In this document: piece after piece, positions 7,442 to 48,420 of the stretch
Layout of the letters: each line of letters begins with the position of its first letter
How positions within the stretch are numbered: position 1 is the first letter of the stretch
From: a virus
Direction: 5' to 3' (one strand)
Length of the DNA: 64,000 nucleotides
IMG/VR virus record: IMGVR_UViG_3300027714_000005
Made by a program: the position numbers and the translations under genes
Notes under the pieces: generated by a model
Seen by the model: the letters and a program-made list of their open reading frames with translations, nothing else
Database searches by the model: none
What the model was told of the DNA's origin: nothing

Positions 7442-8157
7442 ATTTTAAACATGAACCAGTCACGTTGACTGAAATGAATGCAGTGACCACTGATACTGGT
7501 CGTAAGTATATGACACCCGAAGGCATTAACCTTCCGTCTATTACAACGGTGCTATCCATTTTGTCACGTGACTCCATCGCCAAGTGGCGTAAACGTGTTG
7601 GTGATGCAGAGGCGAACCGTGTCTCATATCGTGCATCGACCCGTGGTACATCTGTTCACGAAATCTGTGAGAAGTACGTGAACAACGACCCAGCCTATGA
7701 CAAGTTCATGGCAACCGACCCCGACACTGGGGAACAAACGTTGACTACCCGCACACCTGACCTAATCGATTCTTTCCTAAAGATTAAACCAATCCTCGAT
7801 GAACGTCTGACTACGGTGTACGCACAAGAAGCACCCCTGTACTCTACCCATCTGGGTGTTGCAGGTCGTGTGGATTGTGTGGGTATCTTCGATGGTAAAC
7901 TATCCATCATTGACTACAAGACTTCTATGAAACCCAAGAAACTCGATTGGGTTAAGAACTACTTCATGCAGGAAGCAGGTTATGCTGTAATGTGGGAAGA
8001 ACGTACTGGTCAACCGATTACTCAGTTGGTTACTATTATCTCTGTTGATAATAACGAACCTCAAGTCTTCATCGAACATCGTGATAACTGGATTAATACG
8101 TTAAGAAATACAATTAAACAGTATAATGAGGAAAACTCTGCTTCCATTTTGTTATAA
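7438..8157 (+). CDS. PD-(D/E)xK exonuclease (Cas4/RecB-like, T4-like phage type)
   Basis: PSITTVLS, RGTSVHEICE, QEAPL, AGRVDC, IIDYKTS, Q..GYA.MWEE; GGAG SD before ATG 7438. Confidence 0.85.
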   Translation: MNFKHEPVTLTEMNAVTTDTGRKYMTPEGINLPSITTVLSILSRDSIAKWRKRVGDAEANRVSYRASTRGTSVHEICEKYVNNDPAYDKFMATDPDTGEQTLTTRTPDLIDSFLKIKPILDERLTTVYAQEAPLYSTHLGVAGRVDCVGIFDGKLSIIDYKTSMKPKKLDWVKNYFMQEAGYAVMWEERTGQPITQLVTIISVDNNEPQVFIEHRDNWINTLRNTIKQYNEENSASILL

Positions 8158-8160
8158 ATA
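8153..8160 (+). promoter_or_regulatory. T4-type late promoter
   Basis: TATAAATA 34 nt upstream of ORF 8194. Confidence 0.75.
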
Positions 8161-8193: not shown

Positions 8194-9492
8194 ATGTTAC
8201 AGTTTAGTCAACTCAATGAGACATCTCTCACTTTTGCTGAGATTGTACGTCCTGACAGGGCGTACCGTGCAGACCTCTTTATTCAAAAACTAAAATCAGG
8301 CGAACCCTTTGAAACTACAAAGGGTGACTCGATAGTTTTACAGTACGACCCCGCAATTGAAAAGGCGATTCGTACAGGTGATAAAAAGGGACTACCAATC
8401 AAGGCACTAAAAACCTTGGATGGCACAGAGATTGCGTTTGGTGTACTCTCAAAGACCGCAGAGTTTGGTGGTGGCCGTGGTTCTGGCGGTGGTTCGGATA
8501 ACACCCGTGCAACCGAATCCGCTCAGTGTGTCTACGCACAACTTATGTGGGACAACCCCAAAACAAACTTCTCTCCTGACGAACTCCGCTCCACCTTTAC
8601 AAAGGTTCAGGTTGACGCAAATTTGTCTGATGTTCTTCTTGGTGATGACCAGTGGATTGCATCATCTATTAACACGGCAAAACTTCTCCATAAGGTATTA
8701 AAGAAGAAACAGTACACGTGGCATCGTGGTTCACAGTGGGTTAGTAAACTTGAAGACACCTTCAAGAAACTCAACCGTGAAGAGAAACTATTCAGTAATC
8801 TAAACAAATGGACTCCTGCCGACATCTGGGCAATCGCTCGTGGTGCAGAAAACAAGTATAATATCCTTGACGCAAATAGTATTTCCGAGTTAAACAATGA
8901 GTTGATGAAAGCCTATGCTGCTCGTGATATCATGGGTATCTCACTCAAACAGACGGGTAAAAAATCTAAGTTGTCGCAAGTTAACTTCCGTGCTCCATTC
9001 GTACCACCAAAATTCATCAAACAAACCTTCGGTAAAAGAAACTTCTACGGTGCGAAGGATGGGTACTTGTTTGGGTCTGGTGGATTCGAACTTCAATTCC
9101 GAACCTTCCCAACCTTCCAGTGTGAGATTATAGGTAAGAAAGCAAAACACGGTAAAGTATCCTACGGTGGTATCAGTGATGCTATGAAGGATGCTGTCGG
9201 TAGACCACTTACTCAGAAGAAGGTTGTAGAACAATTACTCAAGAAAAATCCAGTGATGTTCTATGAACAGTTCTGGAAGTACTATGTGATGACTAGTGTA
9301 AAACAAAGTGACAGTAAAGAAGAACTGATTGCAAATCTAGAGAAGAAAGGTTTCGAGTGGTCTGTATCCAAGTACATGGTATTAGAACTGTTCACTTCGA
9401 TTAAGGGTAGAGAACAACAAGTGTTAGACTATATTGTTCGTATTGCAAAGTCACAAACAAAGAACTCAGCCGTTCACTTGAAGGTGTTGTAA
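8194..9492 (+). CDS. putative head-packaged protein, restriction-endonuclease-like fold
   Basis: ESAQC ... KWTPADIW ... GISLKQ resembles a PD-(D/E)xK variant; N-terminus MLQFSQLNE. Confidence 0.5.
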   Translation: MLQFSQLNETSLTFAEIVRPDRAYRADLFIQKLKSGEPFETTKGDSIVLQYDPAIEKAIRTGDKKGLPIKALKTLDGTEIAFGVLSKTAEFGGGRGSGGGSDNTRATESAQCVYAQLMWDNPKTNFSPDELRSTFTKVQVDANLSDVLLGDDQWIASSINTAKLLHKVLKKKQYTWHRGSQWVSKLEDTFKKLNREEKLFSNLNKWTPADIWAIARGAENKYNILDANSISELNNELMKAYAARDIMGISLKQTGKKSKLSQVNFRAPFVPPKFIKQTFGKRNFYGAKDGYLFGSGGFELQFRTFPTFQCEIIGKKAKHGKVSYGGISDAMKDAVGRPLTQKKVVEQLLKKNPVMFYEQFWKYYVMTSVKQSDSKEELIANLEKKGFEWSVSKYMVLELFTSIKGREQQVLDYIVRIAKSQTKNSAVHLKVL

Positions 9493-10712
9493 TGAAATTT
9501 AAGAACTTTATAACAGAACAAAAGAACACTCACATGACCCATATCGAGGATAAGGTTCTCTATGGTGGTGTGAACGGTACACGTCAAGCAATCAATGCAC
9601 TACGTGAACTCCGTGATATGTTGTCTGGTCAGACTAAGAGTAAACTGTCAACCAAGTGGGACGGTGCTCCCGCAATCTTCTGTGGCACAGACCCTAGTGA
9701 TGGAAACTTCTTTATTGCAAAGAAAGGCATTTTCAATAAGAATCCCCAACTCTTTAAGTCTGCTCAAGAGATTGATGCAGAACTTTCGGGTGACCTTGCG
9801 GTCAAGATGAAACTCGCATTGAAACACGTACCTGAACTTGGTATCAAGGGTATCATTCAGGGAGATTTCTTATTCTCAACCGGAGATACTAGTAATGAGG
9901 TTATTGAAGGTGACAAGTATACAACCTTTCATCCCAACACCATCATATATGCGATACCTTATGATCAAGCTGCCGATGTACGAAAGGCGAAGATTGGAGT
10001 CGTGTGGCACACAACCTACACAGGTGATACTTTCGAGTCACTCAAGGCATCCTATGGAGTGGACGTATCCAAATTTAAGGATTCGAAGAATGTCTGGTCA
10101 CAGGACGCAATGTTAAGAGATGTGTCTGGTGCGACTATGGATGCGAAGGAAACTAAGGAAGTTACGGAACACCTAAGTAAAGCGGGTAAGATATTTAACC
10201 AGATTTCTGGTTCTACTCTCCGTGAGTTAGAAGGTAATAAAGACCTCGCAACACTAATTGAACAGTATAACAACACTTTTGTGCGGCAACAAACGGTCAT
10301 TACTAACACTAAAGCGCACGTTCAGGGTTTAATCAAGTGGTTGGATGCAAAGTTTCAGAAAGAGAAAGATAAGAGAAGTACTGAGAAAGGTAAGGCAACC
10401 CAACAGAAGAAGTTGGATGACTTTATGAAGTTCTTCTCCACCAAAAATCAAAAGAATCTAGTTGCGATGTTTGATTTACAAAAAAGTATTGTACTTGCAA
10501 AACTGAAACTTATAAATAAACTTAATAGTATCTCTAAAATCGATGCGTTTGTACAAACCAAAACTGGTTATAAGATTCGTACAGGTGCAGAGGGGTTCGT
10601 TGCTATTGACAAGTTAGGTGGTGACGCGGTCAAGTTAGTTGATCGACTAGAATTTTCTTATAATAACTTTAGTCCAGATATCCTAAAGGGTTGGGACAAA
10701 GTTAAGAAATAA
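9492..10712 (+). CDS. DUF6267-like protein, nucleotidyltransferase/ligase (KxDG) fold
   Basis: HMTHIED, STKWDGAPA, QGDFLF, FHPNTI.YA, AEGFVA, VKLVDRLEFS..NF. Confidence 0.75.
   Translation: MKFKNFITEQKNTHMTHIEDKVLYGGVNGTRQAINALRELRDMLSGQTKSKLSTKWDGAPAIFCGTDPSDGNFFIAKKGIFNKNPQLFKSAQEIDAELSGDLAVKMKLALKHVPELGIKGIIQGDFLFSTGDTSNEVIEGDKYTTFHPNTIIYAIPYDQAADVRKAKIGVVWHTTYTGDTFESLKASYGVDVSKFKDSKNVWSQDAMLRDVSGATMDAKETKEVTEHLSKAGKIFNQISGSTLRELEGNKDLATLIEQYNNTFVRQQTVITNTKAHVQGLIKWLDAKFQKEKDKRSTEKGKATQQKKLDDFMKFFSTKNQKNLVAMFDLQKSIVLAKLKLINKLNSISKIDAFVQTKTGYKIRTGAEGFVAIDKLGGDAVKLVDRLEFSYNNFSPDILKGWDKVKK
10511..10518 (+). promoter_or_regulatory. late promoter (intragenic)
   Basis: TATAAATA about 220 nt upstream of ORF 10739. 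Confidence 0.45.
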
Positions 10713-10738
10713 ATGGGATAAACCAGAGAGGTAAACCA

Positions 10739-11122
10739 ATGTCCAAACTAATCGGACTAAAAGAATTTATTAAGGTACTCGAATCACCGGACGAAGCATT
10801 GAATATGCAACAACGTCTGAAGATGGCACGTACCTTCAAGAAGAACAAAGCAAAAATCGCAATGGGTCGCAAACGTGCGGAACGTAAAGTTGCTGATATG
10901 CCCACTCTAAAGAAACGTGCACAGAAACAAGCACGTCAAGTCTTCCTCAAGAAAATCACTAAAGGTGTCGAAAAGGGCGATCTCTCTATGGCACGTAGAG
11001 CGTCCATCGAGAAACGATTATCCAAGTTTAAACCTAAGATAGATAAACTAGCAAAGAAACTACTTCCTGCGGTACGTAAGGGTGAACTAGCTAGAAAACG
11101 AGGCGGAAACAAGAGTGATTAA
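10739..11122 (+). CDS. highly basic putative internal head protein
   Basis: K/R-rich after an acidic leader ending VLESPDE; GAGG SD. Confidence 0.65.
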   Translation: MSKLIGLKEFIKVLESPDEALNMQQRLKMARTFKKNKAKIAMGRKRAERKVADMPTLKKRAQKQARQVFLKKITKGVEKGDLSMARRASIEKRLSKFKPKIDKLAKKLLPAVRKGELARKRGGNKSD

Positions 11123-13031
11123 AGATTTTAAATCATACCTAACCGAAGAAGCGAAGGAGGTTTATTTTACGTTTGGTAGAATGAATCCACCTACTATCGG
11201 TCACGGTAAAGTATTAGATACTATTGCAAAAAAAGCAAAGGGTGCGGACTATAAAGTCTACGTATCCCAGTCACAAGGGCCTAAAGACCCACTGTCATAT
11301 TCTGACAAGGTAAAACACCTACGTAAGATGTTACCCAAACATGGTCGAAACATCATGGTTGATAAGGGTGTACGAAGTGTGTTCGATATCGCAACTAAGT
11401 TGTATGACCAAGGATACAAACGAATCACTATGGTAGTCGGAGAAGACCGTCTACGTGAGTTCGAAGTCCTGTTGAACAAGTATAACGGAACCAAAGCACG
11501 TCACGGTTTCTATAATTTTGAGAAGATATCTGTTGTATCTGCTGGTCGTAGAGACCCAGATGCAGAAGGTGTTGAAGGTATGTCTGCGTCTAAGCAACGT
11601 GCCAATGCAAAAGAGAATGATTACACCGCATTTACTCAGGGTGTACCAACGTCTATGTCCGATAAAGATACACGGAAGTTATTCAATGATGTACGGAAGG
11701 GACTAGGTCTCAAGGAAGAGACATCTTTTAAACGTCACATTAACATGGGTTCTGCGGGTGATATCCGTGAAGCATATGTTGAAGGTAAGTTGTTTGAACT
11801 TGGCGACATTGTTGTTATCAAAGAAAGCGAAGAAGTCGGTGTGGTATCTGTACTGGGTGCGAACTATGTTATCGTTGAATGCGGTGACAAGAAAGTTCGC
11901 AAGTGGTTGGATGCTGTTGAACTTGTTGAGAAACAGGACAAGGACATCAAAGACCGTGAAGGAACTCAACCCGCACGTTATCATTCAGGACTCAAGAAGT
12001 CTACCAAGGTAAAACGTGACGCACACTTCAAAGCAAAGAAAGATGGCCCTGCGCCAGGCGATGCGACTGCCAAGACTAAACCATCCAAGTACACCAAAGC
12101 ATTCAAAGATATGTATGATGAAGACTGTTGGGATGGGTATAAACAAGTAGGTGTGAAGAAGAAAGGGAACAAGACTGTTCCTGACTGCGTACCAGTAAAT
12201 GAGTATGGCGGCCCTGAAATCTCCAAAGCAGATTACCTGAAGAAACAACGTAATAGTACCCCCCCTATCAAAGAAGATGTTTCTCAGAAAGAGTTGGATG
12301 ACCTAGAAAAATTCGGTGATAGATTACTCAATAAGTTTGATGTTGATATCGAATTCACTCGTCACTTCAAAGACCGTATGAACGACAAACGTAACAAACC
12401 TGCTATTACTGTTGTAGAGATAGAACGTCTATTCAAGAAGATGGCAGATAACAAGGGTAAGAAGATTAAGAAGCACGGTAACTCAGAAGCAATCCTCAAG
12501 GATATGCAGTCTGACCTAAACCTACCTGTTGTGGTTAACTGGAAGAACGGTGAGTTCGAAGTTGTTAACAAAACAATAATGCGTAAGAAGGGGTTCAAGT
12601 CACCCGATCCAGTTCTCACTTACGAGGGTAAGATGCTCGACAAACTGAAATCAGTAACTATTGGTAAGAAGTCATATCAGGACGCATTAAAAACACTCCA
12701 GACTTTGTTGATACGCAAAAAGAAAGAGGGTGGTGGTAAACTGAGACATGGTACTGAGTACTACGCTGCACAAGTCGCTAAGTCATATCAGGGTATGAGT
12801 GACCGAACTCTCCATAAGATGTTAGGAGAAGATTGTGGTGCTGGTGAAGAAGGTACAGACAAACTCATCAAGAAGTATAAGAAAGATACTCCGATGTCTG
12901 AAGATGCAGTCAAGGCAGCGCAGGAAAGAATCAAGTCTGAAAAAGATGCCGACAAGAAGAAGCATGATGGACTACTAGATCGTGCTAGACTTGCTCGTGC
13001 AAAAGCAAAGAACGCGAGTACAAAACCATGA
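11115..13031 (+). CDS. HIGH-family cytidyltransferase-like multidomain protein
   Basis: FTFGRMNPPTIGH, VVGEDR, SAGRRDPDAEGVEGMSASK; several extra C-terminal modules. Confidence 0.85.
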   Translation: MIKDFKSYLTEEAKEVYFTFGRMNPPTIGHGKVLDTIAKKAKGADYKVYVSQSQGPKDPLSYSDKVKHLRKMLPKHGRNIMVDKGVRSVFDIATKLYDQGYKRITMVVGEDRLREFEVLLNKYNGTKARHGFYNFEKISVVSAGRRDPDAEGVEGMSASKQRANAKENDYTAFTQGVPTSMSDKDTRKLFNDVRKGLGLKEETSFKRHINMGSAGDIREAYVEGKLFELGDIVVIKESEEVGVVSVLGANYVIVECGDKKVRKWLDAVELVEKQDKDIKDREGTQPARYHSGLKKSTKVKRDAHFKAKKDGPAPGDATAKTKPSKYTKAFKDMYDEDCWDGYKQVGVKKKGNKTVPDCVPVNEYGGPEISKADYLKKQRNSTPPIKEDVSQKELDDLEKFGDRLLNKFDVDIEFTRHFKDRMNDKRNKPAITVVEIERLFKKMADNKGKKIKKHGNSEAILKDMQSDLNLPVVVNWKNGEFEVVNKTIMRKKGFKSPDPVLTYEGKMLDKLKSVTIGKKSYQDALKTLQTLLIRKKKEGGGKLRHGTEYYAAQVAKSYQGMSDRTLHKMLGEDCGAGEEGTDKLIKKYKKDTPMSEDAVKAAQERIKSEKDADKKKHDGLLDRARLARAKAKNASTKP

Positions 13032-13270
13032 TTAAGATGGCATTAACCAGACGGGCGGGTGAACTCATTGAGGGTGCTCTTGCGGATAAGTCTAAGAAGT
13101 CGGGTATCTCCGTAGATACATTAAGAAAAGTATACAATCGTGGTGTTGCCGCATGGAAGACTGGTCACCGGCCAGGCACTACTCCCCAACAGTGGGGATA
13201 TGCCCGTGTAAATGCCTTCATAGTAAAGAAGAAAAAGGGTGGTCTGAACCACGATAAGGATTTAGCATAA
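13028..13270 (+). CDS. DUF5824-like C-terminal half
   Basis: LRKVYNRGVAAWKTGHRPGTTPQQWGYARVNAF. Confidence 0.75.
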   Translation: MIKMALTRRAGELIEGALADKSKKSGISVDTLRKVYNRGVAAWKTGHRPGTTPQQWGYARVNAFIVKKKKGGLNHDKDLA

Positions 13271-14789: not shown

Positions 14790-15299
14790 ATGAAATCCTT
14801 TGACGAACATTGCAGTTGTGTAAAAGAATCATCTCTGATTGAGAATAATCAGTACAGGGTTGGTTCTGAGAAATACTTCGAGTACTTCCGTGATGTTCGT
14901 GAAGCATATCATGCCGGAGAACTGACAGTAGACCCCAGTGAGATTGATATCGTTGAGGGTAACCTTGGTGAGTTCGCAACCTATAAGGGTGAAAATGTTG
15001 CGTTAGATTGTATCTTCGAAGCAGAAGAGAAGAACCCACCATTGAACAAACCCAAAGTCGGTGGTGCAAAGAAGTACTATGTGTATGTCAAGGATGGAGA
15101 CAAGGTAAAGAAAATCTCTTGGGGTGACACCACTGGACTCAAAGTTAAGTTGAATGACCCAGCTGCACGTAAGTCTTTCGCTGCACGACACGATTGTGCG
15201 AACAAGAAGGACAAGACTAAAGCAGGATACTGGGCGTGTAACCTACCACGTTATGCCAAACAACTCGGACTATCTGGAGGAGGAAACTTCTTTTGGTAA
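14790..15299 (+). CDS. DUF6321-like protein
   Basis: KKYYVYVK..KVKKISWGD...ARKSFAARHDC..K.DKTKAGYWAC. Confidence 0.7.
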   Translation: MKSFDEHCSCVKESSLIENNQYRVGSEKYFEYFRDVREAYHAGELTVDPSEIDIVEGNLGEFATYKGENVALDCIFEAEEKNPPLNKPKVGGAKKYYVYVKDGDKVKKISWGDTTGLKVKLNDPAARKSFAARHDCANKKDKTKAGYWACNLPRYAKQLGLSGGGNFFW

Positions 15300-47578: not shown

Positions 47579-47743
47579 ATGAGTCATTACGATAAAGAAA
47601 GAGAAAGTTACCAAGACTTTATTGCAAAAAAAGCAAAAGAAGCAAAAAGGATATCCGCTTCAATGGTTGCACCCTCACCCATAGAGTTAAGGGTGAAGGC
47701 GTTAGAGGAAAGAATAAAAGAGTTAGAGAAGAAACAGGGTTAA
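47579..47743 (+). CDS. 54-aa coiled-coil protein (not in ORF track)
   Basis: GAGG SD; MSHYDKERESYQDF...LEERIKELEKKQG*. Confidence 0.55.
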   Translation: MSHYDKERESYQDFIAKKAKEAKRISASMVAPSPIELRVKALEERIKELEKKQG

Positions 47744-48420
47744 GATCGTTTCTTCTTCTTACGTTCGTCAGCAATCCACTTCTTAGCTTTAGAGTTATCT
47801 ACTGGTTTTTTGAGGAACTTACTGACATCTTTATATGCACGTAGAGTCTCTACCTTAAAGTCTTTACCGTTAGAGTTATCAACAATCAACATATTCTGTT
47901 TACCGAACATAGTCTGGAATGCACCGATGTTACGTTGTACTTCTTTCCAGTAGTTGGTAACTTCTTTCGCACCAATAGTACGGTCACGTGCTTCATCACG
48001 TTCTATTGCGGTATCAAGGTCGGTGTTCACAAATATCATTGCAACATCGTAACCAAGATTCTTCATTGCACTGACTTGTGATTTAACCTTACTGAAGTCT
48101 TTACCAGTACCATCAATAACCAAACCAAGACGACCAGTAAGGTATCGTGTTTGCATGATACCAGTTAATTTCTTTGCCTTACCACGCATCTCTTGACCTT
48201 GTACAGAGAAGATGTTATCGGTGTTCATCTCCATACCTGCTTTCTTCATTGCAGCTTCGTATGCGTCATCAGAGTTTACAACCTTCAGACCTAATGCGGG
48301 AAGACCCGTCTTACCAACGATGAAAGACTTACCACTGCCTGGCCCACCAGCAAGGAATATTGCTTTAAAGATTGCGGGGTCATCGACACCCTCAGTTATG
48401 AACTTCTTAAACTTAATCAT
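47740..48420 (-). CDS. zeta-toxin/AAA_33-like P-loop kinase with capsid-targeting-like leader
   Basis: FLAGGPGSGKS, VNSDD, LVIDGTG, AIER...R.R; start MIKFKKFITE. Confidence 0.8.
   Translation of the reverse strand: MIKFKKFITEGVDDPAIFKAIFLAGGPGSGKSFIVGKTGLPALGLKVVNSDDAYEAAMKKAGMEMNTDNIFSVQGQEMRGKAKKLTGIMQTRYLTGRLGLVIDGTGKDFSKVKSQVSAMKNLGYDVAMIFVNTDLDTAIERDEARDRTIGAKEVTNYWKEVQRNIGAFQTMFGKQNMLIVDNSNGKDFKVETLRAYKDVSKFLKKPVDNSKAKKWIADERKKKKRS

Follow-up and report, generated by a model that had tools for sequence, protein, structure and literature searches.

Introduction

RNA ligases that lack an OB domain, namely NgrRnl (Rnl5; 5cot, 6vt1), TbREL1 (1xdn), T4 Rnl2 (1s68), Trl1 (6n0t) and T4 Rnl1 (9do4), are the described enzymes with which we compare a protein of the DUF6267 family encoded in the IMG/VR virus record IMGVR_UViG_3300027714_000005. 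Its gene (9492-10712) is one of three tightly packed genes on the plus strand (9492-10712, 10739-11122 and 11115-13031) of a 64,000-nucleotide stretch of DNA, hereafter the window, by which we mean the whole stretch analysed. As in these ligases, the nucleotidyltransferase (NTase) motifs I, III, IIIa, IV and V of DUF6267 follow one another in the same order and, leaving aside an insertion, at similar spacing. DUF6267 has no significant sequence or profile similarity to the group, and the resemblance is structural only. Whereas RNA ligases carry a separate N- or C-terminal domain, DUF6267 has a helical module of ~130 amino acids (aa) inside the domain itself, between motifs IIIa and IV. It also differs in an HxxHxED motif, in the single lysine of its motif V and in a leader of the head-targeting type, and its activity is a prediction.

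The company that DUF6267 keeps has precedents as well. In T4 (Pnk and Rnl1), in bacterial Pnkp and in yeast Trl1, a kinase accompanies a ligase-fold enzyme, and a kinase of the Pnk/Zeta clade is likewise linked to DUF6267, or fused to it in two related proteins (P0001 and L038). Unlike in those systems, neither a 3´-phosphatase nor a cyclic phosphodiesterase was found with DUF6267, and there is an extra partner, an NTase of the HIGH type; in addition, the window genes appear to be late rather than early, and their products head-targeted. The HIGH NTase resembles NadR/NadM and phosphopantetheine adenylyltransferase (PPAT; CoaD) in its Rossmann-like fold, its (T/H)xGH motif and an SxSxxR motif of the ISSTxxR type, and its fusions with the kinase have the domain order of NadR. 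Unlike these enzymes, it belongs to a distinct family marked by GR(F/M)NPPTxGH and VGxDR, is barely over the Pfam threshold, and is followed by unrelated modules.

Here we describe what appears to be a new family of the ligase superfamily, with a new architecture and in an unusual context of delivery. We suggest, with moderate confidence, that DUF6267 is a head-packaged polynucleotide ligase, acting on RNA more likely than on DNA, and part of a head-delivered kit that heals and seals broken ends.

Results

Predicted fold and conserved motifs of DUF6267

The DUF6267 protein (406 aa; 9492-10712, plus strand) matches PF19782 with an E-value of 2e-99 and is predicted to consist of a ligase-type covalent NTase domain with a helical insertion and no OB domain. 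The AlphaFold2 model, built with 60 homologues, has a predicted local distance difference test (pLDDT) score of 93.3 and a predicted template modelling (pTM) score of 0.90. A Foldseek comparison of this model with the PDB gave no significant match, with DNA ligases recurring among its weak rows. The long structural matches were all ligase adenylyltransferase domains, covered over nearly the whole target domain; the two figures recorded for each match are 8.1 and 185 for NgrRnl (6vt1), 8.1 and 194 for TbREL1 (1xdn), 7.6 and 199 for Trl1 (6n0t), 7.4 and 179 for T4 Rnl2 (1s68), 6.8 and 168 for T4 Rnl1 (9do4), and 6.0-6.4 and 168-189 for several DNA ligases and Rnl3. Judged by the model, the enzymes closest in shape to DUF6267 are the ATP-dependent RNA ligases without an OB domain.

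A first-pass annotation, made from the letters of the window alone, had picked out KWDG, QGDF, EGFV and VKLV as the motifs of a ligase- or capping-type NTase. All four are where it placed them, in the order found in ligases, and conserved among 150 representatives (one per 50%-identity cluster; 145-149 were covered at the main motif residues); the modelled fold, the structural matches and the invariant residues agree with the enzyme class that it proposed. Motif I, KWDG (aa 55-58; 9654-9665), begins at the end of strand 51-55 in the model and precedes strand 61-66, placing it in the loop after the strand end. Conservation and model together point to K55 as the lysine that accepts the nucleotidyl group: K55 and D57 are present in 145 of 145 covered representatives, and G58 in 144 of 145. 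Motif III, QGDF (aa 123-126; 9858-9869), lies on strand 121-129, and its D125 is found in 149/149. FHPN (F146, P148 and N149; 9927-9938) is a candidate for motif IIIa on spacing only, 21 residues past D125, with F146 on strand 141-146; F146 is kept in 143/149 covered representatives and N149 in 148/149. Motif IV, EGFV (aa 367-370; 10590-10601), borders and enters strand 368-372, and E367 and G368 are both present in 146/146. Motif V, VKLV (aa 380-383; 10629-10640), on strand 379-382, contributes K381 (146/146) and is followed by R385 (144/146).

The helical insertion between motifs IIIa and IV spans approximately residues 215-347 (10134-10532) according to the secondary structure of the model, and short structural matches to helical bundles map to this same region. 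Two of the most conserved residues, N261 and K337, fall within it, and in cyanophage versions it is shorter, ~30-40 residues being absent as one block. The spacings on either side can be set against those of T4 Rnl2, for which we assume motif positions K35, E99, F119 and E204. In DUF6267, K55 and D125 are 70 residues apart, D125 and F146 are 21 apart, and F146 and E367 are 221 apart, of which ~132 are insertion; once the insertion is removed, these spacings match the assumed Rnl2 positions. After the last strand the model has one helix (385-393), with neither an OB domain nor motif VI, and the chain stops 25 residues past motif V, as expected from the earlier remark that no OB domain could be recognised.

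Outside the ligase motifs, DUF6267 has an N-terminal motif of its own, HMTHIED (H14, H17, E19 and D20; 9531-9551), recognised by conservation. H14 is present in 140/141 and H17 in 144/144 covered representatives, and the motif residues are invariant in the cyanophage versions too. Every covered representative keeps K55, D57, K78, D125, H173, N261, E367, G368, K381, F388 and N392, and a single exception each was seen for G58, N149, Y153, K337 and H14. The shorter versions (~300 aa) of Synechococcus and Prochlorococcus phages, at ~25-31% identity, retain K55, D57, G58, D125, E367, G368 and K381. This invariance across the 150 representatives and the distant cyanophage versions shows that the motifs are strongly selected and did not arise by chance. 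The family is also a large one: it comprises 2494 protein clusters at E ≤ 0.001 and occurs in 467 phage records.

A Pfam scan of the protein (E up to 0.1) returned DUF6267 alone, with no match to RNA_ligase (PF09414) or to a DNA-ligase model, and the look-alikes retrieved from the ESM Atlas were unnamed viral clusters only. The one stretch that hhalign paired with T4 Rnl2 was motif IV, EGFV against EGYVLK, and this pairing was not significant. Since sequence-level tests fail while fold and motifs fit, DUF6267 is best described, on the strength of the model, as a divergent, separate family within the lysine (covalent) nucleotidyltransferase superfamily, outside the named ligase families. That it has a ligase-type fold and the corresponding catalytic motifs we regard as very probable.

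Within three complete related genomes that carry DUF6267, no match was found to PF01068, PF01653 or PF09414. Since neither DNA- nor RNA-ligase families are matched in these genomes, DUF6267 is, as far as profiles can recognise, their only ligase-fold protein.

Leaders and predicted head targeting

T4 directs proteins into its capsid with the targeting sequence MKTYQEFIAE, which is cut off by the prohead protease (PMC8442874). The DUF6267 protein begins with a similar leader, MKFKNFITE (9492-9518, plus strand), with a predicted cleavage after E9; residues 1-9 are disordered in the model (pLDDT <50). Its NTase partner begins with MIKDFKSYLTE and the kinase with MIKFKKFITE, all three leaders ending in (I/L)-T-E. 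They share the length and pattern of the leaders of T4 IPI-III and Alt, including the (I/L)-x-E end. Of 212 open reading frames (ORFs) in the window, only those for DUF6267 and the NTase fit the strict pattern M-x(1-4)-[FYL]-x2-[FYW]-[LIV]-x-E, which is otherwise seen at one of 752 internal methionines. The leader is present in most members of the DUF6267 family, the others beginning at KNxHLxH, and the NTase leader is conserved in its homologues. Where DUF6267 is extended at its N-terminus, a [LIVMF]-x-E site lies within 14 residues of the mature start in 103 of 115 members.

A protease of the gp21 type (Peptidase_S77) is encoded in 5/5 related genomes or records tested; none was matched within the 64-kb window, nor in the nearest record, a 30-kb fragment. 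As with the T4 proteins, there is evidence from virions for a homologue: a ‘cytidylyltransferase’ homologous to the NTase was detected in a cyanophage virion proteome, and the authors of that study note that such enzymes, like kinases, are often present in cyanophage virions (PMC10665884). Unlike IPI-III and Alt, the cargo predicted here would consist of nucleotide-transfer enzymes, and both packaging and cleavage are predicted from sequence. For this phage, we consider head packaging of these proteins a well-founded inference.

The HIGH nucleotidyltransferase

The first-pass annotation had paired DUF6267 with an enzyme carrying a HIGH motif in the form TIGH. This motif is where it was noted, in a 638-aa protein (11115-13031, plus strand) that Pfam and PHROGs divide into a leader, a HIGH NTase domain (approximately aa 12-205) and further modules: an SH3-like piece, the N-terminal part of DUF5824 and a phrog_23027/14518 module. 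The NTase domain (11115-11759), delimited by model, Foldseek and conserved motifs, contains GRMNPPTIGHG (aa 21-31; 11175-11207), VGEDR (11436-11450) and GMSASKQR (aa 155-162; 11577-11600). In an alignment of 38 homologues GRxNPPTxGH, VGxDR, SAGxRD and GxSxxKxR are invariant, the last reading GMSASKxR in at least 90%. The Pfam match to CTP_transf_like (PF01467) is just above threshold (22.5 bits, with a cut-off of 21), and PHROGs assigns the protein to ‘cytidyltransferase’ (E 1e-65). In Foldseek, the AlphaFold2 model (pLDDT 86.8) matched the adenylyltransferases of nicotinic acid mononucleotide (NaMN) and nicotinamide mononucleotide (NMN) and PPAT equally well, with E-values of 7e-6 to 3e-4 and a probability of 1.0. 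Aligned with E. coli NadR by hhalign, the NTase paired only along the HIGH motif and its surroundings, 30 residues in all (E 1.2e-3, probability 19%). The fold class, a HIGH nucleotidyltransferase of NMN adenylyltransferase (NMNAT)/PPAT shape, can thus be taken as settled at the level of the model. A link to ATP sulfurylase, at which we presume the RNP and VGxDR motifs to hint, was set aside, there being no sulfurylase among the top structural matches listed.

The DUF5824 domain is split in the window. Residues 286-337 of the NTase ORF (11970-12125) hold its N-terminal part, and the C-terminal half (E 5e-20) is encoded by an 80-aa gene of its own, 13028-13270, directly after that ORF. An undivided DUF5824 is fused to the NTase in phrog_3041 and in the representative P0005.

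Association of the NTase with DUF6267

The DUF6267 alignment retrieved 80 viral contigs, and on 74 of these the NTase lies downstream of DUF6267; of the six without it, at least five stop before it could appear. Given how closely related the 80 contigs are, they amount to little more than one observation. A profile search with 13 sequences gave 43 more diverse loci (33-69% identity), for the most part on phage contigs that had been binned into metagenome-assembled genomes: the NTase is downstream in most of those with room for it, and a few have no NTase within 1.4-1.6 kb of downstream sequence. Adjacency persists in cyanophages at 22-28% identity, and in cyanophage ACG-2014d (22%) the two genes overlap; in ACG-2014f they are ~100 kb apart. 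Cyanophage isolate records contain the two at nearly the same frequency (367+61+24 for DUF6267 and 375+61+24 for the NTase), and both orders of fusion, DUF6267-NTase and NTase-DUF6267, exist as single proteins. A complex prediction for DUF6267 and the NTase domain scored 0.00, which speaks neither for nor against binding.

The NTase family is also matched in Klebsiella and Erwinia phages; these groups, like the E. coli and Pseudomonas phages with a stand-alone NTase discussed below, are not among the host groups listed for the DUF6267 search. Two jumbo-phage NTase loci were examined and contain no DUF6267, and their neighbouring genes are unannotated. The stand-alone NTases at these loci (L178:4980-5513 and L179:4992-5564) have no clear T4-type leader. 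The first-pass annotation had proposed a two-enzyme module. Its co-occurrence prediction was borne out by adjacency down to 22% identity and by fusion in both orders; the count of two was not, since a kinase also belongs to the set. The NTase, moreover, occurs alone in jumbo phages.

An isolate assembly of Nonlabens xiamenensis 1Q3 also contains a DUF6267-NTase pair, on a 188-kb contig (L158), and a gp21-type protease elsewhere (contig C10 of G004), which suggests that a T4-like phage was assembled along with the culture.

A Pnk/Zeta-like kinase and the shuffling of modules

Some 36 kb from the DUF6267 and NTase genes, on the minus strand, lies a gene for a P-loop kinase of the Pnk/Zeta-toxin clade (47740-48420; Zeta_toxin 2e-8, AAA_33 5e-8), whose leader was described above; a longer ORF call reaches 48432, with a GTG start four codons upstream. 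It is closely related (E 9.5e-79) to the N-terminal P-loop kinase (AAA_33/Zeta_toxin) that is fused to DUF6267 in P0001, the representative closest to the window DUF6267. Kinase and DUF6267 are fused in L038 as well, kinase and NTase are fused in L154, L155 and L066, and a kinase homologue is a separate neighbour in L151, L156 and L159. The window kinase carries GGPGSGKS, VNSDD and ERDEARDR, features that Zeta toxins and kinases of small molecules have as well. T4 Pnk is matched weakly, around the P-loop and NxDD, with an E-value of 1e-4 across 149 aa by P0001 and of 3e-3 by the window kinase; the best PDB match is a Zeta toxin, followed by faint matches to the kinase domain of Clostridium thermocellum Pnkp and to tRNA(Sec) kinase. 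On this sequence evidence, a Pnk/Zeta-like kinase is the third member of the module.

Further fusion partners of DUF6267 are modules with no connection to nucleotides, homologous to ORF 14790-15299 of the window and to aa 395-507 of the NTase ORF (12297-12635). These two modules form N-terminal extensions of DUF6267 in P0004 and P0112. The pattern suggests that modules are freely exchanged between the genes of this late cluster. In proteins with another module ahead of DUF6267, the mature start of DUF6267 is preceded, at a distance of 2-6 residues, by an (L/I/M/V)-x-E site. The fusions would accordingly show that the proteins travel together, and not that they act on one substrate. The first-pass annotation had supposed a catalytic coupling of the two enzymes, for which the junction sites make the fusions weaker evidence than it had assumed.

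One further arrangement was seen in L156, where a 962-aa protein (8729-11614) that starts with MRFKDFIKE joins a Pol-beta-type NTP_transf_2 domain, the HIGH NTase and DUF5824, in that order. Its gene stands two genes past the DUF6267 gene and one past the kinase gene. A Pol-beta/Pol-X partner was sought in the window and in the other examined loci and was found only as this L156 fusion.

Gene array and genomic setting

Homologues of T4 gp32, NrdA and gp26 are encoded in the window, which is part of a marine T4-like myovirus. The closest isolated phage is C48C1 (Kyanoviridae), with 69% nucleotide identity across the region and identical gene order.

The array opens with a 432-aa conserved upstream partner of DUF6267 (8194-9492, plus strand; phrog_1462), whose stop codon overlaps the DUF6267 start (TAATG). 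This protein is homologous (E 2e-6) to the product of a 465-aa gene immediately 5´ of the DUF6267-like gene in cyanophage ACG-2014d, with which it shares W(T/N)PADIW ... G(I/V)SLK; it has no Pfam family match and no sequence match in the PDB. The shared motif could be a PD-(D/E)xK-like nuclease core. In the window, the DUF6267 gene adjoins a PD-(D/E)XK exonuclease.

The box TATAAATA, which resembles a T4-type late promoter, lies at 8153-8160 on the plus strand, 34 nt 5´ of the first gene of the array. The octamer occurs 13 times in the window where 3.5 copies are expected, and none of 100 shuffles reached 13. Several copies stand directly 5´ of gene starts (8153, 18758, 36527, 53832 and 59403), which fits T4-type late promoters; by analogy with T4, we presume that TATAAATA acts as a promoter.

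Between the genes for the two enzymes is one for a very basic protein of 127 aa (40 K+R, 12 D+E; 10739-11122, plus strand), which matches phrog_23027 and overlaps the start of the NTase gene (11115) by 8 nt. A gene for this protein sits between both enzyme genes in most related loci.

Discussion

The absence of an OB domain, the predominance of RNA ligases among the best structural matches and the presence of a Pnk-like kinase partner lead us to favor a ligase that acts on RNA rather than DNA. In the mechanism that we propose, K55 of KWDG would attack ATP or another nucleotide donor to form an enzyme-nucleoside monophosphate (NMP) intermediate, the NMP would be transferred to a 5´-phosphate end, and attack by a 3´-OH would seal the break. 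The helical insertion of ~130 aa probably holds the substrate, as the C-terminal domains of other RNA ligases do. Because all three enzymes have T4-like leaders and the ligase-NTase array is preceded by a late-promoter-like box, we propose that they enter the prohead as cargo, lose their leaders to the gp21-type protease and are ejected along with the DNA. At the onset of infection, the kit would then mend broken nucleic acid, RNA being the likeliest substrate, for example tRNA cleaved by nucleases of the host, with the kinase making the 5´-phosphate and the ligase sealing. Least certain in this scheme is what the HIGH enzyme does; it may provide a cofactor, for instance NAD+ (nicotinamide adenine dinucleotide), or adenylylate 5´-phosphate ends.

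Several observations weigh against this proposal. At the level of sequence, hhalign found no significant relation between the DUF6267 profile and T4 Rnl2 or Rnl1 (probability <1%), searches against PDB chains with the single sequence and with the profile returned no ligase and only low-complexity matches to the ribosomal protein eS8, and a literature search for DUF6267 found no paper. Within the protein, motif V has a single lysine and not the usual KxK. As regards the kit, no phosphoesterase that would heal 3´ ends was found in the neighbourhood, and we know of no role for a HIGH nucleotidyltransferase in RNA repair. The NTase is present without DUF6267 within 3 kb in 13 cyanophage loci, and it occurs as a stand-alone protein of 186-191 aa in E. 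coli and Pseudomonas jumbo phages. The DUF6267 proteins of cyanophages lack the leader, and packaging is not universal in the family. Lastly, the protease-type junction sites give the fusions the look of head-cargo polyproteins, so they are weaker evidence for catalytic coupling and may reflect shared packaging instead of a shared pathway.

This last point is the starting place for an alternative that we judge unlikely, in which each of the three, ligase-like enzyme, NTase and kinase, is a head-internal enzyme in its own right and they come together only in arrays cut by the protease, and DUF6267 may nucleotidylate a protein or a small molecule rather than a polynucleotide end. The fusions of DUF6267 to modules such as ORF 14790-15299 and residues 395-507 of the NTase ORF, the (L/I/M/V)-x-E sites just before the mature start, the NTase ORF itself as a chain of unrelated modules and the jumbo-phage NTases without DUF6267 all accord with it. 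However, DUF6267 and the NTase remain adjacent in cyanophages whose DUF6267 has no leader, the recurrent enzyme partners (kinase, HIGH NTase and Pol-beta NTase) are all nucleotide-transfer enzymes, and it is the residues of the ligase pathway that are invariant. The same strict invariance of K55, D57, D125, E367, G368 and K381 indicates selection on catalysis, and makes it most improbable that DUF6267 is a dead relic, a catalytically inactive protein with only a structural or scaffold-like role inside the head, for which its likeness to the leaders of T4 internal proteins and the very basic small protein encoded next door might otherwise speak. Of the remaining two accounts, one assigns DUF6267 a different nucleic acid. 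As a substitute for the missing T4 gp30, it would seal DNA nicks in replication, recombination or repair of the injected genome. The three complete DUF6267-carrying genomes have no match to an ATP- or NAD-dependent DNA ligase or to an RNA ligase, the main match groups of a tblastn search with T4 gp30 do not include cyanophages despite >450 cyanophage records, and DUF6267 is about as frequent as the NTase in those records; cyanophage DUF6267 genes lie near gp41 and MazG, and that of the window beside the PD-(D/E)XK exonuclease. Known DNA ligases need an OB domain with motif VI for adenylylation, however, and DUF6267 has neither; a late-type promoter box and a head-targeting leader would also be odd for a replication enzyme. 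We therefore think this substitution quite improbable.

The other account turns on the donor. In it, the kinase and the HIGH enzyme act in the manner of NadR and make NAD+ or a related dinucleotide, which DUF6267 uses as NAD+-dependent ligases do, freeing NMN for re-use; in a simpler variant, the pair restores NAD+ against NAD-depleting defences. Pairs of a HIGH NTase and a kinase for NAD salvage have been described in phages (PMC7824862), and the authors who reported the cyanophage protein had already named it an NMNAT homologue. The fold of the NTase is like that of NaMN/NMN adenylyltransferases (8aih, E 7e-6; 9rpk; 1kku), and a profile search gave weak matches to the NMNATs 9rpk and 1f9a. 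Its HIGH motif is paired by hhalign with that of NadR, the P-loops of the NTase-kinase fusions align with NadR as their domain order does, and a stand-alone NTase in jumbo phages would suit a small-molecule enzyme. Set against this, PPAT matches the NTase as well as NMNATs do, and the similarity to NadR is confined to the HIGH motif and the P-loop. The kinase scores as Zeta_toxin/AAA_33, the Pnk clade, whereas AAA_28, which we take to be the Pfam family of the NadR kinase domain, is faint and seen in the L154 fusion only (E 0.0099, below cut-off). DUF6267 itself matches ATP-dependent RNA ligases, an NAD+-dependent ligase appearing once among the matches shown (Foldseek rank 47, E 0.69), and no NAMPT or Nudix partner was seen nearby. 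On balance, a relay through NAD+ has a low probability in our view.

Returning to a head-delivered ligase, its most specific form is that an ejected kinase, an NMNAT-like adenylyltransferase and an RNA ligase of a new type mend tRNA or other RNA cut by the host before phage genes are expressed; this full scenario is a long shot. In its most far-reaching version, the HIGH enzyme would adenylylate 5´-phosphate ends (pN-RNA + ATP -> AppN-RNA) and pass them to the ligase. The formation of AppN-RNA is the same chemistry as that of NAD+ from NMN, and to our knowledge such a division of labour between a HIGH enzyme and a ligase is unprecedented in ligation.

Among the most abundant marine viruses are the T4-like cyanophages and related phages of SAR11-type and methylotroph hosts, and DUF6267 is widespread in such phages while being without a name or a paper. 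As the only ligase-fold gene recognised in three complete genomes, it is relevant to the basic question of how nucleic acid is sealed in these phages. Should the leader function as it does in T4, the enzymes would join the class of injected proteins that act before transcription. The list of injected proteins, which includes Alt and IPI*, would then be extended to nucleic-acid repair or nucleotide metabolism, and this may point to counter-defence. In addition, a compact RNA ligase whose substrate-binding module is new could serve as a laboratory tool.

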